Positions 1 through 19,071 of a stretch of DNA of 64,000 nucleotides are shown here, piece after piece (position 1 is the first letter of the stretch; each line of letters begins with the position of its first letter). Under the pieces are notes generated by a model. That model had not been told where the DNA came from, searched no databases, and saw only the letters and a program-made list of their open reading frames with translations. Origin of the DNA: Amphiscolops sp. MND2022 (taxonomy: Eukaryota); assembly GCA_964187785.1 (NCBI GenBank), contig OZ076409.1:62746001-62810000 (forward strand), written 5' to 3'. The position numbers and the translations under genes are program-made.

Positions 1-1
1 T

Positions 2-348
2 TCGCGTAATGACAATCGCAAAGGAAATTCAGAGAGAAAGAATTTCGGAAGAAGTAGCTCCGGCGATTGTTATGCAAGCAGAGGTTTTGGGGATCGGGAA
101 AGAAACGGAAGAGGTAGAGAGATGAATAGAAACCCTAGATTCAAGACCCTCACTCCAGGAAGCTCCCCGGGACTTTAGGGAAGATCGTATTCTCGAAGGA
201 GGTTTCCGGTAACTGATCGAGAGGTGGGATTCCGAGATAGATGTTGTCGTATCTGCGGGCATAATTGATACTGGGCGAGAGATTGCAAAAATTGTTTCAA
301 GTGTGGTAGTTCACAGAGTTTCAAAAAAGATTGTCTGTTTTCAAACTA
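2..348 (+). pseudogene. gag: Gag C-terminus with two degenerate zinc knuckles
   Basis: Frame 2 reads an R/G/S-rich region then CRICGHN*YWARDC-KN-CFKCGSSQSFKKDC; contains internal stops. Confidence 0.75.
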
Positions 349-439
349 AAACAGGCTAATGTAGAAATGTCCTCGCATTTGCCTAACTGTAACATGGCCA
401 TATTGGAAGTAACAGCCAACTAGAACACAGAGAAAACTC

Positions 440-2800
440 AAGTTTTTTACTTGACATTCCTCATACGAGGGAAATGACGAAGACACTAGTAGACAGTGGA
501 AGTAGCGTCTCAATAATCGATTGGTTGTTCCTAAACACACTGGGTTTCAAATGAAAAATGGAAAGTTACAGTGGAAAATTTTTAACAGCAAACAAAACAC
601 ACCTAACAGTGAAAAGAAAAGCAGAGCTGATTGTGCAGTTACAAAAGTTTTCGACCGAGTTTCGAGTTGGTTTTCTGATATCATCAATGGACATTTTTGA
701 TTGATTTTTGAGACTGGATTTTCTCACAGAACTAGATTGTATTTAGTATATTAAACGGAAACATTTTTTCTACGGGAAGCTTTTGAAGACATTGGAATTG
801 GAGTCAAGCATGCAAAACACTGGTACCATGTTTTTAATTGTCAGCTCAACACAAAGTATACCTTCGATAAGCCAAAAACTGCCCCAATGTGAAGTACGGG
901 ACGAACAAGGAAAACGTGTAAAAAGTTTCCAAGGATTAGTGAATCCAATAGAATCATACCAGGAGGCAACAGGGTTATGGGTAGCACAGTCACTGGTGAA
1001 AAACAGTGAAGGAATTTGTTGGGTACAACTTTTAAAAATCCACGACGAGGATATTGTAATGTACAAAAGCTCCCGGTTCGGGAATTTGTTGAAACGGAAC
1101 TTGAGCAACTAGTTTTTTCACTTCAAGCAAAAAAATGAAGTTTCATTTCACTGAAAGTTTCAACTTTGAAAAACACGTAAACCTTTACAGTATTCGTTTG
1201 ACATGAGATCAATTGGACGCGGTAAAAAGTCTGTGCCAAAAGTACGAGAAAAATTGTTCAAAAAACTTGAATGTTTTAGGATTCAACAAACAAATAAAAC
1301 ATCATATCAAGCTCAAACAAACGCTAAGCCGTATTGTTGAGCGTATGGAAACATGAGTTTGGACAAACAAAAGGATTAGCGGAAGCTGATCTAATAACAC
1401 CAACTCATTCGCACTGGGCAGCACCCAGTATTTTGGTTCCAAAAAAAAGACGTACTGTCGTAGACTACAGTGGACTCAACAAACAACTAGAGAAGACATG
1501 TTGGCCACTGTGTAGAATCAACGATGTGATTGGTTCCCTTGAAGGGAACATTTTTCCCGAGTATTGACATGACATAGGGATATTTTCAAATGGCTCTGAA
1601 AGGGGATGTTACAGTTGTTTTTTTTAAAGACAGTCAGAATCTTACCGTCTTCATCACGCCTGTCGCCCTCTACAAATGGAAAGGTTTTCCATGGGACTCG
1701 CTTCTGCGAAAAGGGGTTTTTCAACACTTGATGGAGCTGCTTTTCAGTGGTTTGCCCTACGAAGTAGCGCTTGTTTACAAAGATAACCTTATAAGGTTAG
1801 GTAAAAACTTTGAGGAGCATCTAGAAAGACTGGAGCTTGTTTTCGGAAGACTGGAGAAATAGGGATTGAAAATCGAAGGATCAAAATGCAATTTCTTTCA
1901 AAGAAGATTATGTTTTTGGGCCACGCCATCTCGGAGAAAGCTGTGGAGGTGGACCAAGAGTAAGTGAAAGCCGTAGAGGAAATGACAGCACCCACCAATT
2001 TGAAGGAAGTGAGGGCAGTCCTGGGATTAGTAGGGTTTTGAAGGAAGTTTATTCCGTGTTTTAGAAAATGTTCAGAACCCCTATATAAAAAGTTGAAAAA
2101 AGAGGAAAAGTTCGTCTGGACCAACGAATGTGAACGTGCTTTGAAAGAAATGAAAGCAAACTGTTGACCGCGGTTATACTGGGTTACCCCAACAACTCAG
2201 ATGATTTTACGCTAACTACAGACGCCTCTTTGCCAGGAGTTGGTGCCATTTTGACACAGAGACAAAACGGGGTGAATAGAGTAATTGCACATGCCAGCAA
2301 ACTTCTTTGAAAAACCCGAAAAAAATTACTCAGCAACAAATAGGGACAACAGCGTTTCATTGGAAATGCAATGATTGAGCGAACCAACGGGCTATTGGAG
2401 GAAAGCATTTCTACAGACGTTAGTGAACATCAGCATGACTGGAAAAACTACCTGCAATTGTTGATGATGTCCTACCATTCCCGATACACGCAGTAACAAA
2501 GTATAGTCCTACATACGTCATATTTGGGTCACAACTGAAACTGCCAGTTGATTGTATGTACGAGACGCGTCATACAGTCATCAGCAACACCTAGTGATTT
2601 CATTTTCAAAACAAGGCGTGAGCTACAGAAAGCACGTCATTGGATCAGGATTCAGATGGAAGTAGAACAAACTAGACAGAAAACCTACTACAACTACCAC
2701 GCATACGGGCCCAGGTACCGAGAAGGACAGCATGTTTTTGTATTTTTCTCATCAGTAAAAAAAGAGAGGAACAAAAAGTTCACATTTCTTCACGAAGGAT
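440..2800 (+). pseudogene. pol: Ty3/Gypsy pol (protease, RT, RNase H, partial integrase), heavily disrupted
   Basis: LVDSGSSVSII (~486); SHWAAPSILVPKK..VVDYSGLN (RT); VALVYKDN (degenerate YxDD); TDASLPGVGAILTQ (RNase H); GNAMIERTNG..DWKNYL (IN). Confidence 0.85.
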
Positions 2801-3318
2801 ATACACAATTGTTGAACTTGTTGTGTATAAGTTGTTGTGATACTTGTTGTGTTGAACAGAGAGAAGTGGAGGAAAAATCATCAGACGAAGAAGTTGACGA
2901 CGACTCCATTGAAACTGAGGTCGAGCAAACAAACGGACAGGAAAGGGACCTACAGAGAAAAAAGGTTTCAGAATGAAAACCCTGAGACAGTTGATCCAAA
3001 CAGTGATGCCATAACCGTTGAAGAATATGCTAACGAGCGACCGTGTAGCGAGTCTTCAAAAAAGGACGGAAGTAGCAGTCAAAGAGATAAATTCTTGACC
3101 GGAACACAAAACCAAAAACTCAAAGCGAAAAAAAAGAGAGAAATATTCCACCACCTCGCGGTAAAACACGAATATCCGATCCGTACCGCAACGGTTTGCT
3201 GACTACTTTGTGAATTACCCCGATGACGGCAATTTTGAAACAGATGACGTTTTTACTTCAGGAAAGAAGTGAAGAATAACGGGAAAAGGAAGCAAACGAA
3301 GAGGGTGAGCAGGTACTA

Positions 3319-6067
3319 GTGTTCTGCGCGTTCATGGCAGTCTGTTGGATTGTCACAATGAGCGAAGAAACAAGAACAGTGGGATATTACTTCGGGCAAA
3401 TGTTGACAACATCAGTGCTTTCGCTTTCTGAACAATACCCTGGATGTTCTCGAGAATCGAGAGCTAGAAAGAATGTAACGAAGGCTACAATTCTTTTTCA
3501 TGAAAGCAACACGGAACTAGAGGATTTGTCACTATTAAGCGTCATATACATTACAACAAATATAAAAAACAATGTTTACGATGACGGATTATACTTACAC
3601 AAAGATTCGAAAATCTACCGACGTTTTACTTCTTGTCTGCAAACATGTCCGTCTGTATGGACTGGAGAGGTTTTCAAGTTACCGGGTTCCGGTAACCAAG
3701 ATATCAAACTTAGCACTGCCGAATTAAACAAGGTGATAAGTGACAGGACAAAATCCAGGGAAACGAGTAACTACTCAGCGATGTTTATGGAAAAAAAAGA
3801 GCCCGGAATTGGCTATGCACGTCAATGTGGAGTGGACCACACCTCTTGGAGAAACAATCGTTTGTTCTGTTATGATCGACGCTACGTCTACCAATAGGCA
3901 AAACTCAGGCTAGAAAAAGAATGCATATGAACGAGTTTCTATTCACTTGGAAAGACCCCTTCGGTAATGAACTTTCAAGGAGTTTCATTCTGGAGAATTT
4001 TGAACATGATTTTGTGGTTTGCCTGACGAAAATTACAACGGAATGTAAATGGTCAAAACTGGTTACCAAAGTGGAGGAGAATGAAGTAGTTGGATTCCGT
4101 GGGCTGAGGAGTACTTCAAAGGGAAACGTTGTTTGTACGGTTGACTTTGATGCTTTTCGCTACATTTTTCAGATTTTTATACCAATTGTTTTTCAAGATA
4201 CAACTCAAGAAGCTAGGAACAACCACCAGGTTCGCTTCACAACCTTTTTATCCATTTTACGAGTATGATAAGTACCTTGCTGATTTCAAAAATCTAAAGG
4301 GAGAGCATGCTGAAGAAGAGCAATCAAATGTAGATGAAAACGCAGTGTAAATTGGTAGCGTATATTTGTTCCAAAATAAAATTGAAAAATTCATGATACT
4401 TTGATTTTTTGTGTGTGTTCAGAGATTTGTCACTATTAAGCGTCATATACATTACAACAAATATAAAAAACAATGTTTACGATGACGGATTATACTTACA
4501 CAAAGATTCGAAAATCTACCGACGTTTTACTTCTTGTCTGCAAACATGTCCGTCTGTATGGACTGGAGAGGTTTTCAAGTTACCGGGTTCCGGTAACCAA
4601 GATATCAAACTTAGCACTGCCGAATTAAACAAGGTGATAAGTGACAGGACAAAATCCAGGGAAACGAGTAACTACTCAGCGATGTTTATGGAAAAAAAAG
4701 AGCCCGGAATTGGCTATGCACGTCAATGTGGAGTGGACCACACCTCTTGGAGAAACAATCGTTTGTTCTGTTATGATCGACGCTACGTCTACCAATAGGC
4801 AAAACTCAGGCTAGAAAAAGAATGCATATGAACGAGTTTCTATTCACTTGGAAAGACCCCTTCGGTAATGAACTTTCAAGGAGTTTCATTCTGGAGAATT
4901 TTGAACATGATTTTGTGGTTTGCCTGACGAAAATTACAACGGAATGTAAATGGTCAAAACTGGTTACCAAAGTGGAGGAGAATGAAGTAGTTGGATTCCG
5001 TGGGCTGAGGAGTACTTCATTGGCGGGGTTCTATAACACTGACAAACAAACGATTCGCACTCGAAATGGATAATTCGCCCACGATGATATGCAACAAAAC
5101 CGTATATCCTACAATAATACAAAACGTTTATGTCAGTCTTGAAAACTGGGATTTAGAATTTCATGAAGCCAACAGTCGATGCTTTTATGCGTTTCCAAAG
5201 TCGATTGGAAATAGTATATACGCGCGGAGTACAAGAGACGTAGGATTGAAATTGTCACTCTTTTTTATTATGGAGAGTGTCGTGTTAGGAGTGGGAGCTG
5301 TAGGGTTGCACGTGGAGAAAGCAAGCGGAGTGTTTTACCAGCATCGATGCGCAAAAATGGAAGTAATTGTGATCGAAAAACACTTTTTGCTCTGAGGAAG
5401 TGCCAGTACGGCTAGGTTGAGACGGAAACTTTGAAAAAAGATACTAGCATCCAGGTACCAGAGTTTTCTTTACTAATTACACAAAGATAGAATGCAATCT
5501 TATTTATCTCACTTTACTGAAGATGGCAAACGGTACGTGGATGACATACGGGAAAAGACTAGAAAGAACCAGAGTGGAACCAACACCATTTTTCAATAAT
5601 ACTAGACGTGAAATGAGACCCCACAAGTTCGTACGGCTCAAAGAAAATGGATTCTTTACATTGTGAAGGAGTAGTCGAGCAAGGGCATTCAAGCAAAGTC
5701 GAGCTACAGTCACAATACGTGAGGTTTCCTTAGACCACGCGGAGAATACAGCCATGAAGAATACTTTCATCTAAATTTGCCAAGTAGACAGGTGGGTTTC
5801 AGCGGGAGCGTTCTCCAGTGTTTTGAGGGTGTAAAAAGGGAAACGTTGTTTGTACGGTTGACTTTGATGCTTTTCGCTACATTTTTCAGATTTTTATACC
5901 AATTGTTTTTCAAGATACAACTCAAGAAGCTAGGAACAACCACCAGGTTCGCTTCACAACCTTTTTATCCATTTTACGAGTATGATAAGTACCTTGCTGA
6001 TTTCAAAAATCTAAAGGGAGAGCATGCTGAAGAAGAGCAATCAAATGTAGATGAAAACGCAGTGTAA
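3319..6067 (+). pseudogene. env: Env-like glycoprotein resembling chuvirus-type (class III-like) G; frameshifted and internally duplicated
   Basis: Hydrophobic N-terminus. Joining frames gives MICNKTVYPTIIQNVYV...GVFYQHRCAKMEV..FCSEEVPV..HPGTRVFFTNYTKIECNL..MANGTWM. C-terminal hydrophobic segment LFVRLTLMLFATFFRFLYQLFF. Confidence 0.65.
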
Positions 6068-8503
6068 ATTGGTAGCGTATATTTGTTCCAAAATAAAATT
6101 GAAAAATTCATGATACTTTGATTTTTTGTGTGTGTTCAGAGATGAACCAACGACGAGTAAATGAATACGTCTACTTCTTTCCTGAACTATGTCAAATTAA
6201 ATCGGAGGTATCTCCGAGACTTTACAGAGTGCAGGGATGTCTTCCCGGGCATCGGAAAGTTCCACCAGAGACACGCTTGCTTCCGCTAACATCAAAAACA
6301 GGGCAGATATTACTAATCCACAACTGATCGGGTTTCGACATAAATTGGACACAGCGAAAGAAAAATTTGAATTGTTGGAGGTAAAACTCCAGTTAGGAGA
6401 GAAGCATATCAATTGGAAGCGAGAATAGCAGCGGAGGAAAAATTTCGAAGGAAACTTGAGTGCGACAACAGATTGCAGCAAGAAAAAATACGATTGACGG
6501 ATTATACTTACACAAAGATTCGAAAATCTACCGACGTTTTACTTCTTGTCTGCAAACATGTCCGTCTGTATGGACTGGAGAGGTTTTCAAGTTACCGGGT
6601 TCCGGTAACCAAGATATCAAACTTAGCACTGCCGAATTAAACAAGGTGATAAGTGACAGGACAAAATCCAGGGAAACGAGTAACTACTCAGCGATGTTTA
6701 TGGAAAAAAAGAGCCCGGAATTGGCTATGCACGTCAATGTGGAGTGGACCACACCTCTTGGAGAAACAATCGTTTGTTCTGTTATGATCGACGCTACGTC
6801 TACCAATAGGCAAAACTCAGGCTAGAAAAAGAATGCATATGAACGAGTTTCTATTCACTTGGAAAGACCCCTTCGGTAATGAACTTTCAAGGAGTTTCAT
6901 TCTGGAGAATTTTGAACATGATTTTGTGGTTTGCCTGACGAAAATTACAACGGAATGTAAATGGTCAAAACTGGTTACCAAAGTGGAGGAGAATGAAGTA
7001 GTTGGATTCCGTGGGCTGAGGAGTACTTCATTGGCGGGGTTCTATAACACTGACAAACAAACGATTCGCACTCGAAATGGATAATTCGCCCACGATGATA
7101 TGCAACAAAACCGTATATCCTACAATAATACAAAACGTTTATGTCAGTCTTGAAAACTGGGATTTAGAATTTCATGAAGCCAACAGTCGATGCTTTTATG
7201 CGTTTCCAAAGTCGATTGGAAATAGTATATACGCGCGGAGTACAAGAGACGTAGGATTGAAATTGTCACTCTTTTTTATTTTGGAGAGTGTCGTGTTAGG
7301 AGTGGGAGCTGTAGGGTTGCACGTGGAGAAAGCAAGCGGAGTGTTTTACCAGCATCGATGCGCAAAAATGGAAGTAATTGTGATCGAAAAACACTTTTTG
7401 CTCTGAGGAAGTGCCAGTACGGCTAGGTTGAGACGGAAACTTTGAAAAAAGATACTAGCATCCAGGTACCAGAGTTTTCTTTACTAATTACACAAAGATA
7501 GAATGCAATCTTATTTATCTCACTTTACTGAAGATGGCAAACGGTTCGTGGATGACATACGGGAAAAGACTAGAAAGAACCAGAGTGGAACCAACACCAT
7601 TTTTCAATAATACTAGACGTGAAATGAGACCCCACAAGTTCGTACGGCTCAAAGAAAATGGATTCTTTACATTGTGAAGGAGTAGTCGAGCAAGGGCATT
7701 CAAGCAAAGTCGAGCTACAGTCACAATACGTGAGGTTTCCTTAGACCACGCGGAGAATACAGCCATGAAGAATACTTTCATCTAAATTTGCCAAGTAGAC
7801 AGGTGGGTTTCAGCGGGAGCGTTCTCCAGTGTTTTGAGGGTGTAAAAAGGGAAACGTTGTTTGTACGGTTGACTTTGATGCTTTTCGCTACATTTTTCAG
7901 ATTTTTATACCAATTGTTTTTCAAGATACAACTCAAGAAGCTAGGAACAACCACCAGGTTCGCTTCACAACCTTTTTATCCATTTTACGAGTATGATAAG
8001 TACCTTGCTGATTTCAAAAATCTTAAGGGAGAGCATGCTGAAGAAGAGCAATCAAATGTAGATGAAAACGCAGTGTAAATTGGTAGCGTATATTTGTTCC
8101 AAAATAAAATTGAAAAATTCATGATACTTTGATTTTTTGTGTGTGTTCAGAGATGAACCAACGACGAGTAAATGAATACGTCTACTTCTTTCCTGAACTA
8201 TGTCAAATTAAATCGGAGGTATCTCCGAGACTTTACAGAGTGCAGGGATGTCTTCCCGGGCATCGGAAAGTTCCACCAGAGACACGCTTGCTTCCGCTAA
8301 CATCAAAAACAGGGCAGATATTACTAATCCACAACTGATCGGGTTTCGACATAAATTGGACACAGCGAAAGAAAAATTTGAATTGTTGGAGGTAAAACTC
8401 CAGTTAGGAGAGAAGCATATCAATTGGAAGCGAGAATAGCAGCGGAGGAAAAATTTCGAAGGAAACTTGAGTGCGACAACAGATTGCAGCAAGAAAAAAT
8501 ACG
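3523..8503 (+). repeat. Near-identical tandem duplications within env and the downstream region
   Basis: ~4483-6493 recurs at ~6494-8503 (ORF offsets 2011 bp). A 901-bp-period, internally deleted copy lies at ~3523-4423. Only a few SNPs separate copies. Confidence 0.95.
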
Positions 8504-8637
8504 AAGGCTGGGGGAAGTTCTCGAGCGGAAATGATACTTGTGAAGATAAGCGAAACAAAGCCAGAGTAACAGAAAAACTTATCAGGGAGTTATATCACGA
8601 ATGTTTTTTCCAACGTACATTCACACCCTATGCAATT
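8248..8637 (+). pseudogene. 5' part of coiled-coil + J-domain ORF 1 (split by the BEL insertion)
   Basis: Coiled-coil-like KLDTAKEKFELLEVKLQL, then ...FFQRTFTPYAI ending at the BEL 5' LTR. Confidence 0.7.
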
Positions 8638-9586
8638 TGTTGGCGCCAGTCAATTGCGAGATCAGAAACTCAAATTCGAACGTGACTGATGAAACTTACA
8701 ACTCAAAACACTTAGAAGCATTGTCAAGATTTGAGATGGAAAATTACAAGTTTCAGCAGAAATATGCCTGAGAGAAAAAAAAACACCACCCCCTTTTTGA
8801 GAAGCACTTGTCCAATGACCATGAAACTTAGCATGCATATACTAGAGCTGCTAACTCAACTTTTCACTCGAACCACCTTACCTCGTATCTCCCCTGGGTT
8901 CAGAACAATTAACACCCAAAGTGACCTAGGTCGGACCCCATGAAAACCCAATTTTGATGTATTAATTATTATGTGATTTTCTCATAAGACCTTGAAGGAA
9001 ATGTAACTCTGTTAAAATTTATTATATTTACGTTGTGTAAACACACTTTCTAGCCCACCCAACCAACATGCCAAAACCACCACATAGTTTGTTTACTTAG
9101 CCAATAACTTCATTTTACGCTTTAAATGTCCTTAATTTATACAAATTTTTTCAACTGATATTTGCCTATATTTACTGTAGAATTGTAAACCTTATTTATA
9201 CCATTATTAGAGATAGATTTTCTTCACTGATTAGCTACAGTTAAGTTGGGTCTTAGGACCAAAAGATTAGTTAAACAACTTCTCAATCTTCACAACTTTT
9301 CGCTAGAGTAAGAGCGACTAAGTAGCTACTCTCATAGTTGGAGAGCCGGAGCGCGTGATGATACAGAGAAGGAAGTTTGTACTGGATCACATCGGATCCA
9401 CCTTAGTGCAAAGAGGAATCGTAGGCGATTCCACGGGTCATACCGGACCCACCAGTTAAAAGATACAGTCCTTTAAAAAACGAAACCAGGATTTGTTTAG
9501 TGACGGTCCACAGCACTAAGCAACGGATCAGGGCGGCGTAAAGCTTGTCAAGCCTCAGCGCAGGATAAGGGCAAGCAGCCGTTACA
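8638..9586 (+). repeat. BEL 5' LTR
   Basis: TGTTGGCGCC...GCCGTTACA, matches 16306-17252 with scattered mismatches. Followed by PBS-like TAGTCCGCCGGCCCGGA. Confidence 0.95.
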
Positions 9587-9687
9587 TTTAGTCCGCCGGC
9601 CCGGACTAGAAGAAGAAGACGAAGACGTCTGTTGGTGGACAACTGAGAAATTGCCCAAGAAAAACAAGTGTCTGGATTCTCTGACTT

Positions 9688-9907
9688 TGTGTCTCTGGGA
9701 GATTAGGCTACTGTGTCTCTGTGAGATTGGGCTACTGTGTCTCTGGGAGATTGGGCTACTGTGTCTCTGGGAGATTGGGCTACTGTGTCTCTGGGAGATT
9801 GGGCTACTGTGTCTCCAGGAGATCGGGCTACTGTGTCTCTGGAAGACTGGGCTACTGTGTCTCTGGGAGATTGGGCTACCGTGTTTCTGGGAGATTGGGC
9901 TATTGTG
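9688..9907 (+). repeat. 24-bp minisatellite (~9 copies) in the BEL 5' leader
   Basis: Unit CTACTGTGTCTCTGGGAGATTGGG, head to tail, no spacers. Confidence 0.95.
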
Positions 9908-9942
9908 ACTTTTGGAACTGAGTTTAATCAAAAAGAAAAGAG

Positions 9943-12400
9943 ATGACTGAACCAAAGAGAATTGATCACAAAAAATTTAGTCATTTGAAGAGCTCTATGG
10001 ACAAGCCACAATGGGAGAGCAACATGAAAGCAATTCAAATGTTTGAGGCAAAAGTGGATACAATACATGCTGAGCTGCGCAAAAACTACGTGACAAAAGA
10101 GCACCTTGCAGATCTTCTGCCAAACCGGCAAGACCTACTGACCAGCTTGGAGAAACTCTTCGAGGCGAACAAAGTGGTCCTGAAAGCCAAGTATCAGCCA
10201 GAATGTACAAATACTAAAAGCGACAGGTTATCCAGGTATCGTGATGAATTAACGTCCTTGGAAGGAAGAGGTAAAAACATTGGTCAGATGATCACAATGA
10301 TGCAAAGCCTGAAATATGAAGGACAGTTGAAGCAGTTCCTACAGCTTCAAAACGCCAAAGAGAAATGTGATGAAATGATTGAGAAAAACGAAAATGAAAT
10401 CGAAAAAAATCGAGATGCGTTTTGCAATTCAGATGATTACAAAGCATTGCTTGAAAGCAATGAAGAAACTCTCAAAAAGAGAGGTGAAATTGTGGTTGAA
10501 ATGAATGGGATGCTGAAACCTGGTGGGGATACTTCAATCTACCGTGAACTGCATCGCATGGACGGATTATTAGCCCGTGCCCAATTGAATTGGAAAGAGC
10601 AACAACTAAAGTCCCGCGACACTTCACCACAAAAAGAGCCACAACCAGATGATGAGCAAAAAGATGACAGTGGTAAAAACGTGGATGAAAGCGAAAACCA
10701 AGAGCCACAGAATGGGGCCAGTTCATTGCTAATAGAAGAATTGACCGTACATTCGCGAAGTAAAAGAACCAAAAGCAACAAAACGTCTGTGATTTCAAAA
10801 CATCAAGTGTAAGACGAGTTCTCGATTTGTAGTTGAAAGCTTTGAAAGAGCAACAAGAACTTCAAATCCGCCTAGAGAAACTGAGACGTGAAGCAAACGA
10901 AGCTAAGATAGCTAGCTTGCAAGATGATAAGGTTGGCTTGCAAGAGGAGATGGCCCGCAAAGCCAAAATTGCTGAAAAGGAACTACAAATCGCGCAAGTG
11001 TCGAGTAGTAGTGGGTCTAGCTTCGGAAGTATCTCACCGGTTGGGACTCCGGATGACAACCTGACGAAAGTTTCAGGATGGATGGACAAGACAGAAGAAG
11101 CTGAAAACGTGGCTCAGACCATTAACGTGCCAACAGTATACAAGCAAACGTCTGTCTCAGCACCAGTTTTACAGTACGATCAACTCATGGAGGACAATGC
11201 TCCGCGCAAGTAAGTGACTTGAAACCCTCAGTGAAACCGACCACAACCACAGAAGCAGCTATTCGAGGTATTGGAATGGACACCACAAAGACTGTCATAG
11301 GTACTGGCAGTCAAAGAGCAACAGCACAACCAGAAGTGAAATTCGCCACATCGAAGCGCCAATGACGCTTATGGCAGGCCAACGCTGGGTACCACCTACG
11401 AATGGAGGCAACCCGAGTAGTGCGTTTCATGTGCCACAGCTTGCGAACACACAGAAGCAGTATATGCCAAGTCAAGGGCCAAACATAGCGTCCAATACGA
11501 GAGAAGACTATTTCATCAGATCAAGCTTGCCAAAACTGAAGCTGGCAGAGTTTTCAGGTGACCTATTGGAATGGCCAGAGTGGTCACAACTATTTCAAGC
11601 AACCGTCCACGCAGCCCATGTGGACGACAGTGTAAAGATGGATCACTTGAAAACAATGGTAACAGGCAAAGCCAAAGAGGCGATTGCTGGCCTCGGGTTG
11701 ATACAGGTTCATTTGTTTCACATGAGTGAGCCACTTCGTTTTCATGTCCAGTGGTAACTTCATTTTGTGGCACTGCCCAGAATTCCTCCTAAGTTTAGGT
11801 CCTCCACATAGTTGAATTGTGTCAAAACATTCACGCAACTCGACACTATTCTCGCAAACTTGATCAATGCGGCTCCCTCATAAGGTTTCATAGGAGGAAA
11901 AGAATAGATTCGTTTCAACTGAGCGTTCACGACCATCTGAGGTTTTCCAAAGTTTTGAACTAGCACGTTCCACGCCACATTGTACATCTCAGCGGTATGG
12001 ACTCGCTGTGTTCAGTGAATGGCTCAATGATATAGCAGAAGTACAAGATGAACTGCTTCTATCTTCAAACCCGAATGCTGATCGCGCGAAGTCGAGCTAC
12101 AAAGAAAAGGCAAAAGGTTCCACGTTTGCAACTTCAGCCACAAACACAGCCAGTGACAACTCAAAATACCAGCGAGAGTGTGTGCTGAAAGATGGCAAAT
12201 ATCCAATATGGAAATGTGAGAAGTTCCAGAAAATGAATGTCGAAGAGAGAGGACAAGAGGCGAAAGAACTGAAGCTGTGCTTCAAATGCTTGTCAGACGC
12301 ACATCAGATGCGAAATTGCTCTGGTAGACTCTGCGATGTGAAAGGTTGCGGAAAACTTCATCACAGATTGCTACACAGACCATACAAGAACGTGGAACAG
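9943..12400 (+). pseudogene. gag: BEL gag with stops and a ~300-bp internal inversion
   Basis: Coiled-coil N-terminus; LPKLKLAEFSGDLLEWPEW; LCFKCLSDAHQMRNC..CDVKGCGKLHHRLLH. Segment 11696-11997 reads on the minus strand. Confidence 0.9.
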
Positions 12401-15400
12401 AAGAAAATTGTTGAAAATGTCGATGAGGTCTCCAACCTGTCATCAATGAAAAGCAGTGGTGTGCTTCCAGTCATTCCAGTAATGATAGGGAGTGGGAGCA
12501 AAAGTCTGAAAACGTTTGCTTTGTGTGACGCTGGAGCAAGCCTATCCTTTGTGGACGAGAGCTTGATGAAAACGCTAAATCTGACGGGACAGCCAGTAGA
12601 TTTGAATGTTGCCGGGATTCACGGTACATCAGATATCAGTAGTAAACGACTTCGAGTAAAGATTGGAGATCAAAACGGAAGGATCAAAGAAGATATCATG
12701 GCCTATAGTCATCCCAACGTGAATGCAGGAAATCGAACGTACAACCTCAAGAAATTGGAAGAAACATATCCTCACTTGTCAGTTTTGAAGGATCCTACCA
12801 TCAACTCGGGAGAAGTGAAAGTCATCTTGGGCCAAGTTTGCTACCACTTGCATAGAGCAATCGACTATAGAAAGTGCGGAAACGCAAAGCCCTGAGCCGT
12901 GCGAACGAAATTGGGATGGATGCTCAGTGGACCGTTGCCCCAACATGAGACAGCAAAACTTGCCACTGAAAGCTTGGTTGCTGCAGATGTGGATCCATTA
13001 GCGGATCAAGTGAAAATTTGGTGGAGCATGGAATCGTATGCTCCCAACTGCAGCGCATCCGGAAGGTACAAGGAGGACGACAAGACGACAAGGCCCTCGA
13101 AATGCTCAAGGCAACCACAAAGTTCGATGGAGAGAGGTATGAGGTCGGACTACTTTGGAAAAATGCAAAGCCGCATTTGCAAATAACTACAGTTCAGCAG
13201 TAAGTCAACTGAAGTCTCTCGAGCGCCGACTGGAAAAGGATAAAAACTTGAAAGAACGCTACAAAGAGACAATTGATGTGGACGTACAAAAGGGATTTGT
13301 AAGAGTTCTGGACGAAGCAGAGCTTGAAAACACTAAATCAGACCTTCAGTGGTACCTTCCGCATATCCCTGTGCTGAACCCGAACAAGCCGGACAAAGTG
13401 AGACGAGTATGCAACGCTGCCTCAAAGTTCGGAGGCGTTTCACTAAACGATAATTTGATGGCCGGTCCAGACATCCTACAATCGCTCATTGGAATTATCT
13501 TCAGATTCAGGGAGAAACAAATTGCCTTGACAGCAGATGTCGAAGCGATGTTTCTCCAAGTGAAAGTACCCCCTGCGGATTGCAAAGTGCTCAAATTTTT
13601 GTGGAGAGAACACAACACCAAACCTATTTCCGTGTATGAATATGGAAGACACATTTTTGGAGCTAAGAGTTCGCCAACATGTGTCAACTATGCTTTGCAA
13701 CAAGTCGGACGAGACTGCAGAGATGAAAACGGGATGGTTGCAAATTTGATCAACAGAAAGTTCTATATGGACGATTTTGTGAAGTCAATTGCTTCAGAGG
13801 AAGAAGCTGGTGACGTGTACCGAAACTTGCGAAAATCCTTAGCGCATCGTGGATTTCAACTAATGAAATGTATTTCCAACTCCGAGAAAGTAATGCAAGA
13901 AATTTCTTCTGAAGATAGATCAGTCGCGCTCGGTAAAACTTTAGAAGCTGAACCCTTGGCGTCCTCTATATTAGGACTTCAATGGAATGTGAAGTCAGAT
14001 AGTCTTGAGATCTTCTGCGGTATGGGAAAAGAGGTGCCTGTCAAGATCACTCAGAGAATTGTTATAACACAAGTATCCTCTGTGTTTGACGCGTTGGGAT
14101 TGTTTTCCCCCTTCACAGTGAGAATGAGATTGTTGCTCAAAGGAATTTGGAAAAAGCATGGACAAGCGTGGAACGAAGAGTTATCTCCAGAAGACGAGAT
14201 GGCATTCAAGGATTGGACATCGGAGCTGAATCACATGAACGAAATGACTATCAGAAGAAAATATTTGTCGAAAATGCTGAAGTAATGGAATTGCATATTT
14301 TCTCCGATGCATCCCTGGACGTCATGTGCATAGTTGATTACCTTCGAGATCAACAAACCGGAGAGCTTGTCTATGTGGTAGGGAAATGCCGAGTAGCGCC
14401 AATGAAGCAACAATCAAAACCAAGATTAGAGCGTCAAGCAGCTATGTATGGGACCCGATTGAAACAGCTGATCGTAGATGAACACGACGTTGAAATTGAA
14501 CAAACCTTCTTTTGGACTGATTCGACAATTATGTTGCAATGGTTGCATGGAGCTGACAAGAAACAACCGGTGTTTGTTGCAAACAGAGTCGCTGAAATCC
14601 TTGACAGTTCAACCATTGATCAATGGAGACACGTCGAAGGAACCAAAAACCCTGCCGACATTGGAACAAGAGGGAAATCTGTTCTTGAACTAGAAAAGAG
14701 TGAGTGGTTCACAGGGCCGGCGTGGCTTCAACAGAAAGAAGATGATTGGCCACAAACCTCACCACAGTTGTTTCAGCAAAAAACAGAAGACATAGATCAA
14801 GTCTTTGAAGTCGTGTCAGAAGAAAAGGACATTGATTGGGAGAAATTCAGTTCGTTCAGACGAATGACCCGGATCTTCGCATATTGCCTTCGATTCAGTT
14901 CAAAAATCAAAGGAAGTGTAGTAAAGCCAGAAAAAATGCAGCAAGTGATCCGACTGTTACTAAGGAAAAGCCAGATGGAAAGCTTCGGTCAAACTTATCA
15001 AGCATTGGCCGCAGGTAAACCCATGGCTGCGTCTGATCACTTGAACAAACTGTCACCATTTATGGACGATCAGAACCTAATGCGATTAAAAGGACGTCTA
15101 CCTCATGCTGATGCGAGTTATGAAATGAAACATCCAATTTTGCTATCTGCGAAGCATCCTATAGTGAGGAAATTGATTGAAGATGCGCATGAAAGTAACT
15201 ACCATGAAGGAACGGAGTATGTCCGCAGCATTTTGCAGCAAAAATATTGGGTAATTGGACTCCGAAACGCGCTCAGAAATGTGAAGTGGAAGTGTGTTAA
15301 GTGCAGAAAGCAACAAGTTGGAGGAGTTCAACCTTTCATGGCAGACCTACCTAAAGAAAGATTGGAAGAAAGAGTTTTCCCTTTTGCCAACACTGGAGTA

Positions 15401-16284
15401 GACTACTTTGGACCATTCGAAGTGAGATTCATGAGGAAATCAATGAAACGATGGTGTTGCCTGTTCACGTGTTTAACAACAAGAACTGTGCATATTGAAG
15501 TCGTGCCCATCCTGGAAGCCGACGCATGTCTTGCTGCAATTACGAAATTCATCGCTCGAAGAGGAAAACCGAATATCATTCTAAGTGATAATGGAATAAA
15601 TTTCGTGGGCGCAGCTAGAGAAACGCGAGAATGGATAGAAGCTTGGAATCAATCAGATATTGAGCAGTCTTTGGCTCAAAAGCAAATAAAATGGAAGTTC
15701 AACCCCCAGGTGCGCCGCATTTTGGAGGTGATTGGGAGCGAATGGTCAGAAGCTGCAAGAAAGCTATGATGGCAATAGTGGGAAACAGAACACTGACAGG
15801 TGATGTATTATCCACAACAATGTATCTAGTTCAGCAGATATTGAATTCGAGACCTCTGACTAGTGTCAGTGATGATCCTGAAGATTTGGAAGCTTTGACT
15901 CCAAATCACTTCCTGCTAGGACGTGCAAGTCCAGCAACCCCATTCATTCCTGACGCTCAGCGTTATACCGATCTGAGAAAAGTATTCAGAGTATCACAAG
16001 CATACACAGACATAATTTGGAGCAGATGGAATAGAGAGTATTTGTCACAATGGAATGAGAAATCTAAATGGAATAAAGAAGAAGTTCGACAACTGGAAGT
16101 CAATGATTTGGTTTGGATAGTGGATGAAAATGTCGAAAGAGCACAATACAAGATAGGCGGAGTGTTCGAAACCTATCATGGATGGCGATGGGCGAGTGAG
16201 ATCAGCGCTTGTGAAAAGTGAAGATGGAAAACTGAAACAACCAGTAGTGAAACTGGCACCCATGTTCTACGAAAGTGTTTTTCA
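12401..16284 (+). pseudogene. pol: BEL pol (PR-RT-RNase H-IN), frameshifted
   Basis: ALCDAGAS; WYLPHIPVLNPNKPDKVRRV; FYMDD; LHIFSDAS..VAPMK; WTDS; GVDYFGP; SDNG; GGDWERMV; LTPNHFLLG. Confidence 0.95.
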
Positions 16285-16305
16285 GGAGAAAAACAGGGCC
16301 GGCAA

Positions 16306-17252
16306 TGTTGGCGCCAGTCAATTGCGAGATCAGAAACTCAAATTCGAACGTGACTGATGAAACTTACAACTCAAAACACTTAGAAACTTTGTCAAGATTT
16401 GAGTTGGAAAATTCCAAGTTTCAGCAGAAATATGCCTGAGGGAAAAACACCACACCCCTTTTTTGAGAAGCACTTGTCCAATGACCCTGAAACTTAGCAT
16501 GCATATACTAGAGCTGCTAACTAAAGTTTTCACTCGAACCACCCTACCTCGTATCTCCCCTGGGTTCAGAACAATTACCACCCAAAGTGACCTAGGTCGG
16601 ACCCCATGAAAACCCAATTTTGATGTATTAATTATTATGTGATTTTCTCATAAGACCTTGAAGGAAATGTAACTGTGTTAAAATTTATTATATTTAAATT
16701 GTGTAAACACACTTTCAAGCCCACCTAACCAACATGCCAAAACCGCCACATAGTTTGTTTACTTAGCCAATAACTTCATTTTACGCTTTAAATGTCATTA
16801 ATTTATACAAATTATTTCAACTGATATTTGCCTATATTTACTGTAGAATTGTAAACCACATTTATACCATTATTAGAGATAGGTTTTCTTCACGGATTAG
16901 CTACAGTTAAGCTGGGTCTTAGGACCAAAAGATTAGTTAATCAACTTCTCAATCTTCACAACTTTTCGCTAGAGTTAGAGCGACTAAGTACCTACTCTCG
17001 TAGTTGGATAGCCGGAGCGCGTGATGATACAGAGAAGGAAGTTTGTACTGGATCACATCGGATCCACCCTAGTGCAAAGAGGAATCGCAGGCGATTCCAC
17101 GGGTCATACCGGACCCACTAGCTAAAATATACAGTCCTTTAAAACACGAAACCAGGACTTGTTTAGTGACTGTCCACAGCACTAAGCAACGGATCAGGGC
17201 GGCGTAAAGCTTGTCAAGACTCAGCGCAGGATAAGGGCAAGCAGCCGTTACA
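16306..17252 (+). repeat. BEL 3' LTR
   Basis: Copy of 8638-9586, preceded by purine-rich GGAGAAAAACAGGGCCGGCAA. Confidence 0.95.
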
Positions 17253-17479
17253 AAATTCTTAGCGTGAAGGATGACGCAGTAGTGGAGGATATCAAGCGTT
17301 TTTACAAAAAATTAGCTACCTTAACTCACCCTGACGCTGGCGGTTGTGAGGATTACTTCAAAACAATTCGTAGAGCCTATCTCGTTCTGAGTAACCAGAA
17401 AGCAAGAAACATATACAACACATTCAGGTTAGAGAGGGCAGAAGAAAAGTCAACCCTGGGGGCTAATTGGAGAGACTAA
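17253..17479 (+). pseudogene. 3' part of J-domain ORF 1
   Basis: LSVKDDAVVEDIKRFYKKLATLTHPDAGGCEDYFKTIRRAYLVLSNQKARNIYN: J-domain helices with the HPD motif. Confidence 0.85.
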
Positions 17480-17829
17480 CTGAATACTGCTAATTTTATG
17501 ATACATTATACTTTTGATTTTTTTAAAAAATGAAAAGGACTCAGACAAAGTTGTCTAGATGGGAGTCACCTAGAAAGGGGGTAATTAAAGTGTGATTACT
17601 TTAAAAAACTAAAGACACGGTGAGAGTCACCTGTTAATTGCATCATCAATTGATGATGAACATGTCGATTTTGACAAAGTCCAGTTCTAGCGGGTATCGC
17701 TTGGCACCGTCTCAGTTGCTTGCGGTGGTGCAGTAACTATACTTCTATACTCAATTGTAGTGCCGATTTTGGTGTTTAGGCACGCGTTTTTTAGTTGCGG
17801 ACATCGTCTATTACCTGCCTGAGGTTTGT

Positions 17830-18543
17830 GTGGTGAAGCCTCAGATGCCTTCTGGATGGTTCCGGGTGGAAGGCCTAGTCAGCAAAACTCGGAAAGTTGC
17901 GACAGCTGACACCCTCTATCCAGTGGCGCTCGTTAGGAGAGCTGAGATTGACGAGGAAGGACTGCCAGTACTGCGAAACAAAAATGCTGAACTGATGACG
18001 GAACGGCAACCTCTTGTTTTTATGCTGGATGCTCTAATATCTGGGATCCTCAGTTTGCAGAAGGAAGCAGACATCCTTGACGGCCAACCACAGTTCTGAA
18101 ACAAGAGAGCAAATCAGTGGCAACAATTTTTGACTGGGTACAAGGCAACTTCGAAGAAATTGAGGCGACAAGTGGACAGCATAGAGGCTGACTATGCCGC
18201 ACCGATAACGGAATTAGAGGAGAGGCGCAGTCGAGAACATAACTAGTGGAGCTGCAGTTGCAAGGCGAAGCTATCAGTGGTCTCAAGTTGAAGCTGGAAG
18301 CCTTCAAAAAAAGGCGACAAGCTGTTGCTGTACAATTATTTTATGGTGTCGTCCAATGTTTCAGTCAAAGCCATTGCAAAACGATTCATAAAACTAAGCC
18401 TGCTCTGCCACCCAGACCATGGAGGCTCCCACGACGTGTTTGTTTGGCTTCAGAGGGCCCACTGGATAGTAAGTGACACCGAGGCAAGACTCCGCTACGA
18501 AGCTGAGGAATGTGAGGCAGCTGAGGAGTTTCTCAGTTGTTAA
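17830..18543 (+). pseudogene. Coiled-coil + J-domain ORF 2 (disrupted)
   Basis: Heptad-like segments, then VSVKAIAKRFIKLSLLCHPDHGGSHDVFVWLQRAHWIVSDTEARLRYE. Confidence 0.8.
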
Positions 18544-18630
18544 AACAACAGTAAAGACTAAGGTTTTGCGTGAATTTGATGTTTGTTCGTTTCTTTGTCT
18601 GCGAATAACTTTTAATATAGAGGGGGGCAA

Positions 18631-19071
18631 TATAGGAAACCTATATAAAGACTTTTCGAAACTTTTAAAATGACAAAACGTCAAACGTTCGACCAGATTT
18701 ACGATGAGAAACAAATAATTGTTATCAGACACAACAAAACAAGGCTTGTCGGGGTTTGACAATCCTAGGTCAACCGACTGTCGGGGTTCGACAGTAAAAT
18801 ATCCAAAGTAAATAAGCAACTGTCGGGTTTCGACGGATCGCATTGAGAAATATAAAAACTCTCAGATAACAGCGGGCTTCGCCAGACTATCACAAAGATA
18901 AAGCGTATATAAGCGATATGAGAATTTGGCCATTTGATTTTGGCCTTCTATCAAGTTCACTGAGCTATATCATATCTCACACTGATAACGTTTACAAATT
19001 AAAATAAACACATCTTCTAAACATTGAATTGATTCTTTTCGAATCTACGTTTTCATACAGAGGACGTTACA
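18631..19071 (+). repeat. Probable 3' LTR of Gypsy-A
   Basis: PPT AGAGGGGGGCAA at 18619-18630; starts TATAG (possibly TG mutated); TATATAA ~18906; AATAAA ~19003; ends GTTACA. The partner LTR is not in the window. Confidence 0.6.

Follow-up and report, generated by a model that had tools for sequence, protein, structure and literature searches.

Why would a long terminal repeat (LTR) retrotransposon carry two genes for J-domain proteins, the co-chaperones of Hsp70? The question is raised by a 64,000-nucleotide stretch of the 1.07-Gb genome of Amphiscolops sp. MND2022 (assembly GCA_964187785.1, contig OZ076409.1, positions 62,746,001 to 62,810,000), referred to here as the window. It holds a decayed copy of a multicopy Ty3/gypsy family with the order LTR-gag-pol-env-J1-J2-polypurine tract (PPT)-LTR, in which J1 and J2 encode proteins ending in a J-domain that contains the HPD motif. 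We consider it reasonably probable that J1 and J2 are paralogous accessory genes kept by selection in an env-bearing Ty3/gypsy lineage, with products that act as adaptors bringing host Hsc70 to a chosen target. The features of the window from J1 to the end of the element are as follows.

8125 to 8152, forward strand: putative splice acceptor, a T-rich tract with AG at its end, directly before the J1 start (from the sequence)
8153 to 8637, forward strand: 5' part of J1, which covers the beta domain at the N terminus and the coiled coil; frameshifted in the window copy (tblastn; model of an open copy)
8638 to 17252, forward strand: BEL/Pao LTR retrotransposon insert, LTRs at 8638-9586 and 16306-17252, breaking J1 where the J-domain begins (Pfam, LTR identity)
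17253 to 17479, forward strand: 3' part of J1, the J-domain with HPD (Pfam DnaJ, E 4.9e-12)
17782 to 18543, forward strand: J2, with beta domain, coiled coil, and HPD J-domain (frame 18292-18543); start lost, stop at 18097-18099, frameshifts (Pfam; tblastn)
18619 to 18627, forward strand: PPT (from the sequence)
18631 to 19071, forward strand: 3' LTR of the Gypsy family, ends TA...CA (41 genome matches; paired LTRs in other copies)

Both J-domains of the window score above the cut-off of the Pfam family DnaJ (PF00226), the first at 17258-17476 (E 4.9e-12) and the second at 18292-18540 (E 4.4e-8). An earlier note on this DNA, made from the letters alone, had proposed that J1 becomes whole once the BEL element is removed and that a second J paralogue stands before the PPT, and both proposals hold. 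The pieces that flank the insert line up in order with J1 frames that are naturally open in other copies (8245-8643 corresponds to residues 32-163 and 17234-17476 to residues 154-234 by tblastn), and the window J2 matches an open J2 at 68% over 258 residues. The start given for J1, 8248, was too late; the true starts are 8153 for J1 and about 17782 for J2, and with these earlier starts each protein has an N-terminal beta domain of about 50 residues ahead of the coiled coil. J1 (about 234 amino acids [aa]) is paralogous over its full length to J2 (248-263 aa); the two align from end to end at about 30% identity and share the order N-terminal beta domain, coiled coil, C-terminal HPD J-domain. 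DnaJ scores above the Pfam cut-off in six of seven open J1/J2 frames, and no other domain passes. The earlier placement of the J-domain C-terminal to a coiled coil was correct, although it missed the N-terminal beta domain, which is conserved like the J-domain. The note described this arrangement as unlike canonical DnaJ; a nonterminal J-domain is not unusual in itself, as class C proteins carry it anywhere (PMC13254874).

An AlphaFold model of an open J1 (mean predicted local distance difference test [pLDDT], 80) has four strands at residues 9-42, one 95-residue helix at 59-153, and a four-helix J-domain. The best Foldseek matches of this model are J-domains (E 1e-4, root mean square deviation [rmsd] about 2), and the best sequence matches in the PDB are the J-domains of cytosolic DNAJA1 (E 1e-15). 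Helix II of the J-domain has three to four Lys or Arg residues in 5/5 proteins. The proteins end about 15 residues past the J-domain and have none of the parts of classes A and B (Gly/Phe-rich region, zinc finger, beta-sandwich substrate domains). In sequence, fold, and HPD motif, J1 and J2 are class C J-domain proteins, for which stimulation of the Hsp70 ATPase is predicted only. In PMC13254874, the HPD J-domain is described as stimulating Hsp70, and even conservative changes to the motif abolish the effect. We consider it likely that J1 and J2 recruit Hsp70. Neither protein has a signal or a membrane or other hydrophobic segment, and both are likely cytosolic or nuclear; a role as an endoplasmic reticulum co-chaperone for Env folding was rejected for the same reason. 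A predicted J1-J2 complex scored 0.00, which weighs neither way.

That the J genes belong to the element, as the earlier note had claimed, is borne out by the other copies in the genome. The J1 domain has 86 matches among 135 scored candidates, a count in which matches to J2 and one or more host DNAJ genes are included. Among the 20 best J1 loci (the window included; two pairs are tandem neighbors), env lies upstream in 17, J2 downstream in 18, and the LTR downstream in 18, and the HPD motif is intact in J1 at 17/20 and in J2 at 14/18. Nine other copies, each fetched as two stretches, have the order LTR-primer site-gag-protease (PR)/reverse transcriptase (RT)/RNase H/integrase-env-J1-J2-purine tract-LTR within about 10 kb. 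The assignment of 18631-19071 as the family LTR is likewise sound: it comes after the purine tract, 40 of its 86 candidates were scored and yielded 41 matches, and where it forms the 5' end of other copies, a primer-binding-site motif follows it. The nine LTR pairs of these copies are flanked by a perfect 4-bp target duplication in three cases and by one with a single mismatch in two, with four unresolved; LTR identity within an element is 0.85-0.97 (four pairs). The LTRs begin with TA, not the usual TG, in both J-carrying clades (at 18631 in the window and in other copies; the second clade is described below).

Pfam matches in consecutive frames of several copies give gag, followed by PR-RT-RNase H-integrase, and pol matches RT_RNaseH_2 and Integrase_p58_C, not Peptidase_A17. 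All four long env frames of other copies match Monjiviricetes_fusion (PF24664; E 4.6e-12 to 9.8e-19) and have hydrophobic segments near both ends. The label errantivirus was rejected for the family, as the env of errantiviruses is of the baculovirus F type (PMC12440569).

Selection on the J genes was judged by comparing two subfamilies, A, which includes the window copy, and B. The two are saturated, or nearly so, at synonymous sites (proportion of synonymous differences, 0.73-0.87), the J1-J2 spacer retains only a 12-nt chance match, and the LTRs have only short motifs in common. At the protein level, RT is 65-86% identical, J1 55-59%, env 45-51%, and J2 38-44%; within J1, the beta domain (65-71%) and the J-domain (64-70%) stay above the coiled coil (41-47%). 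Because the protein has been kept while synonymous sites became saturated and the spacer unalignable, with J1 retained above env, these comparisons indicate that J1 and J2 are maintained by purifying selection, with HPD kept.

The same comparisons bear on the possibility that the J genes are passive cargo, either a captured host DNAJ without function or host pseudogenes lying by chance beside an LTR. Breaks in the window copy and in most of the others examined, and within-subfamily ratios of nonsynonymous to synonymous substitution (dN/dS) near 1, are what this explanation would have. Their position is fixed in 18/20 loci, however, the protein is kept across saturated synonymous sites and spacer, and the host-like J frames examined lack the J1/J2 architecture. 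In a J-domain phylogeny that included host DNAJ genes, of the kind that the earlier note had proposed, none of 19 host-like DNAJ rows falls inside the element clades. The tree contains 77 rows and 83 columns, with every third database J-domain, and includes a wrong-frame row (L175_1487) and the truncated L233. Passive carriage is already largely refuted and has only a very slight probability. The pseudogene form of it, which the earlier note had named, beside a wrong LTR assignment, as an outcome that would overturn its claim, was rejected upon fixed position, conservation, and multiple copies with a selected HPD motif.

A T-rich tract with AG no more than 3 nt from the ATG precedes J1 in 5/6 copies and J2 in 5/5 copies shown, in both subfamilies. 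Such an acceptor-like tract before each start suggests that J1 and J2 may each be made from a spliced RNA of their own.

A genome scan with Pfam DnaJ (150 scored of 248) exposed a second, younger Gypsy clade with a J gene, comprising L203 (G000:C4:16667500-16677400), L205, L231, L233, L237, and relatives. It has a single J gene, ORF4 (open reading frame 4; 330-390 aa), directly before the PPT, which encodes a beta domain, a Pro-rich linker, a coiled coil, an HPD J-domain, and a conserved Cys-rich tail. Its N-terminal domain has 76 matches of 80 candidates, an HPD J-domain is found in 9/16 further loci of the clade, and an acceptor-like tract precedes ORF4 in 6/6 copies shown. The dN/dS of ORF4 is 0.16 and 0.27 in two unsaturated between-family pairs (3/8 pairs were out of frame and were dropped). 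The env-like ORF of about 800 aa cannot be aligned with the env of the first clade; Baculo_F matches it weakly in 1/4 frames (E 1.7e-5) and not at all in a fifth, and pol has a weak match to a macro domain (E 0.003). Next to the family's own copies, the best full-length RT matches are those of this clade (47-50%), whose members group as sister to the window family in a 22-row RT tree (support, 82/91), so that a sister relationship is probable.

Among loci picked by RT, 2/5 of clade 1 and 3/3 of clade 2 have no J match in the 9.9 kb fetched, and no J or N-domain match was found in any of the six outgroup stretches of the RT tree or in 30/30 other chuvirus-env loci (env plus 1.5 kb). The J-domains of the two clades align, while their N-terminal domains do not match significantly in a profile comparison. 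One capture of a J gene followed by an exchange of env is the simplest reading, with perhaps an even chance of being right.

Beside these elements, we observed tandem repeats of about 80 bp between env and ORF4 in the second clade (L203:6401-6607 and L204:6248-6621) and, outside the element, a Pfam match to the RelA/SpoT region (L203:8589-9305, reverse strand, E 4.8e-10). The J-domain hits of the genome also include a 1,373-aa frame in a single exon, with the J-domain at its N terminus and an additional HPD (L211:605-4723, reverse strand), which is not element-like.

Relatives were also sought by a profile search of 1.84 billion representatives. Full-length three-part proteins (P0018, P0020, P0021, P0075, and P0115) were found at 26-39% identity, with HPD kept, and in the J-domain tree P0115, on a long branch, joins the second clade (support, 97/93). 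Three of these relatives were searched against this genome, with best rows at 40%, 27%, and 40%; lacking a close match here, they come from other samples. P0004, of J1 type, and P0021, of J2 type, both lie on a 10,100-base contig, which hints that the same J1-J2 tandem pair is present elsewhere. Viral contigs yielded no relatives, and in a metagenome scan the matches mostly covered the J-domain region only and were taken as ordinary DnaJ genes.

With these relatives in hand, we can weigh the idea that the J proteins act without stimulating Hsp70, as decoys, dominant-negative forms, or scaffolds in which the J fold is kept for another interaction. Pseudo-J proteins do exist, according to PMC13254874; the match to the Pfam DnaJ profile has weakened in J2 and in the second clade (E up to 0.007), and the second clade adds its Cys-rich tail. 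Pseudo-J proteins are defined by the loss of HPD, however, and the motif persists across the two paralogues and the two subfamilies, in the second clade, and in the distant relatives, which makes this idea improbable.

If J1 and J2 do recruit Hsp70, the next question is which target they serve. A host complex involved in silencing, antiviral defense, or stress signaling is, on our judgment of context, slightly favored, because related enveloped families do without a J gene and others place a TRAF-like gene in the same slot. In the latter group (L251, L253, L260, and L279-L281), there are an open chuvirus-like env, a short ORF with a beta-rich motif at its end, and an ORF with a coiled coil and a MATH (TRAF-like) domain (Pfam E 1e-18 to 1e-22); no long pol frame was found upstream of env in the stretches fetched. 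A MATH gene in this position suggests that the slot tends to hold modules of a host-signaling type. Behind env in other families we also noted unnamed accessory ORFs (L276:526-2097, 524 aa; L278:1189-2481, element strand, 431 aa; and L285:7498-8142, 215 aa), and the two tested have no Pfam match.

Given Hsp70 recruitment, the capsid or ribonucleoprotein of the element itself is a possible target, though we rate it below an even chance. As a full explanation, in which Hsc70 would be brought by the J proteins to the Gag shell, RNA, or preintegration complex of the element itself for assembly or uncoating, it is unlikely, though it is the chief alternative. J genes have so far been found only in env-bearing elements, the invariant Arg/Lys residues of the beta domain could bind nucleic acid, and the domain bears a weak likeness to the SH3-type C-terminal domain of integrase (hhalign P 0.015; Rous sarcoma virus integrase, Z 3.6, with many ties). 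This resemblance is not significant, however, and the presence of two paralogues that diverged long ago and differ in their coiled coils suggests two targets. The env-bearing relatives without a J match described above (all 30 chuvirus-env loci and all six outgroup stretches) also speak against an own-particle role, and since many env-bearing families in this genome have no J genes, an accessory role fits better than one in core assembly.

The adaptor role that we prefer would work as follows. J1 and J2 would each be produced from their own spliced RNA, the coiled coil would oligomerize the protein or space its ends, and the N-terminal domain, a putative SH3/Tudor-like barrel with an invariant Tyr-Tyr and Arg/Lys residues, would bind the target; it is likely the targeting module. 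The J-domain would then trigger ATP hydrolysis by Hsc70, and the target complex would be remodeled or dismantled, much as simian virus 40 (SV40) T antigen acts on Rb-E2F. The use of a J-domain on host complexes by SV40 T antigen and by phage Rki, and the remodeling of host complexes by viral J-proteins in general, are established (PMC13254874). A longer history can be sketched, which we regard as doubtful in its entirety: an ancestor of the enveloped invertebrate metaviruses may have captured a J-domain, which was then joined to a coiled coil and an SH3/Tudor-like reader, expressed it by splicing, kept it through a swap between unrelated class III and class I env genes, duplicated it in one branch, and aimed Hsc70 at dismantling a host silencing or immune complex. 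If true, this would place "complex" retroviruses in an old metavirus lineage and provide a retroelement counterpart of the polyomavirus T antigen.

Several observations weigh against parts of this account. The N-terminal domain folded alone has a pLDDT of 58, its Foldseek matches have E 0.3 or worse, and it has no Pfam family (0/11 members), no PDB sequence match, and no usable Atlas match. Its structural neighbors are nearly all Tudor, SH3, KOW, PWWP, and chromo domains, with VIA Z of at most 4.2 and an rmsd of 1.6 over 40 residues; an SH3/Tudor-like small beta-barrel may be taken from these models as a lead rather than a result. Within subfamilies, dN/dS is 0.45-2.05 for the J genes and 0.6-1.6 for env and RT, which indicates that the copies examined are decaying after insertion; this argues against present activity, not against function in the active lineage. 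The sister relationship of the two J clades is not starred in the RT tree. Their N-terminal domains score in hhalign at a level reached by 10/100 shuffles, and the J-domain tree has an unresolved base and names no host donor; these two results also count against a single origin. The preference for a host target, finally, is a judgment from context.

The window copy itself is a dead relic, a point that the earlier note missed. Its env, pol, J1, and J2 are all disrupted by stops or frameshifts, and env and gag-protease are tandemly duplicated. It cannot encode J1 or J2, because both contain frameshifts or stops and the start codon of J2 is not intact. The features upstream of J1 are as follows.

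1 to 3270, forward strand: PR-RT-RNase H-integrase region, Ty3/gypsy, decayed, with many stops and frameshifts and an internal deletion (blastn against copy L035/L036, 81-85%)
3280 to 8078, forward strand: env for a chuvirus-like fusion glycoprotein of class III; disrupted, with three incomplete copies in tandem at 3280-4350, 4426-6067, and 6489-8078 (tblastn with natural env frames; tandem repeats)
6142 to 6493, forward strand: J1 5' piece, duplicated, within a 2,011-bp tandem duplication (tblastn, repeats)

The order of the pol domains was read by Pfam on other copies, and the env fragments of the window alone have no Pfam match. The gag gene and 5' LTR of this copy lie upstream of the window, where an LTR match (G000:C1:62735473-62735907) is identical to the 3' LTR at 368/432 positions; its flanks form no target-site duplication. 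This degree of identity and the unmatched flanks make the pairing of the two LTRs uncertain, and the family evidence is independent of it. Also upstream of the window, the leader of the element holds an insertion with 51-nt terminal repeats (L031:1503-4895), after which come another partial LTR and primer site; the frames of the insertion we take to be Copia-like from their motifs. Beyond it are tandem gag-protease copies of 2.55 kb. These and the 2,011-bp env duplications may be real rearrangements or misassembly. The BEL/Pao insert matches Pfam Peptidase_A17, RVT_1, rve, DUF1759, and DUF5641; its LTRs (TG..CA) are identical at 906/947 positions, and its 5-bp flanks differ at one position. 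Its leader (9640-9940) contains a 24-bp tandem array with nine copies in register.

Literature searches revealed no description of a retrotransposon-encoded J protein, although Repbase and most subscription journals lay outside them and could hold an earlier mention. The hijacking section of PMC13254874 lists no retroelement, and the string "transpos" does not occur in the portion available; "transpos" and "retro" are absent from the available text of PMC10410713, as is "DnaJ" from that of PMC5408684. The parts of the locus, a class C J protein and an LTR element's accessory ORF, are known; their arrangement was not found in the literature searched. A three-part soluble protein kept across deeply diverged enveloped Gypsy families offers a handle on the accessory genes of invertebrate endogenous viruses: the J-domain tells which enzyme to expect as partner, a control in HPD is at hand, and the host target should be reachable through the beta domain.

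The nearest functional parallels are the polyomavirus T antigens and Rki of the T4-like phages RB16, RB42, and RB43, in which, as with J1 and J2, a mobile genome encodes a class C HPD J-protein in order to use host Hsp70 (PMC13254874). Unlike these viral proteins, J1 and J2 are carried by an LTR retroelement, have the J-domain C-terminal behind a beta-barrel and coiled coil, and form two paralogues, with a function that is predicted from sequence.

Capture of an envelope by an LTR element has its parallel in Anakin, a BEL/Pao element. Anakin acquired a chuvirus glycoprotein, and the env of the window family is likewise of the Monjiviricetes/chuvirus type (PMC12440569 and PMC7642597). The window family differs from Anakin in its Ty3/gypsy pol and its additional J genes. 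Among bdelloid rotifers, the LTR retrotransposons Vesta, Juno, and TelKA likewise hold captured host-type domains, in an ORF of their own that lies after pol and before the 3' LTR (ORF3s with GDSL esterase, DEDDy exonuclease, or env), but their cargo replaces env, whereas the J genes are added behind a full env (PMC5408684).

In layout, the window family also resembles a vertebrate retrovirus whose accessory proteins have cyclin folds. There, too, the accessory genes stand behind env and are paralogous. The two genes of that virus are expressed from spliced subgenomic RNAs, and the product of one has a host-derived fold and manipulates host complexes (PMC3185748). The fold differs, a J-domain here and cyclin folds there, and splicing here is inferred only. 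Layouts thought typical of complex vertebrate retroviruses, with several accessory ORFs behind env that are probably spliced, are also found in a Ty3/gypsy lineage.

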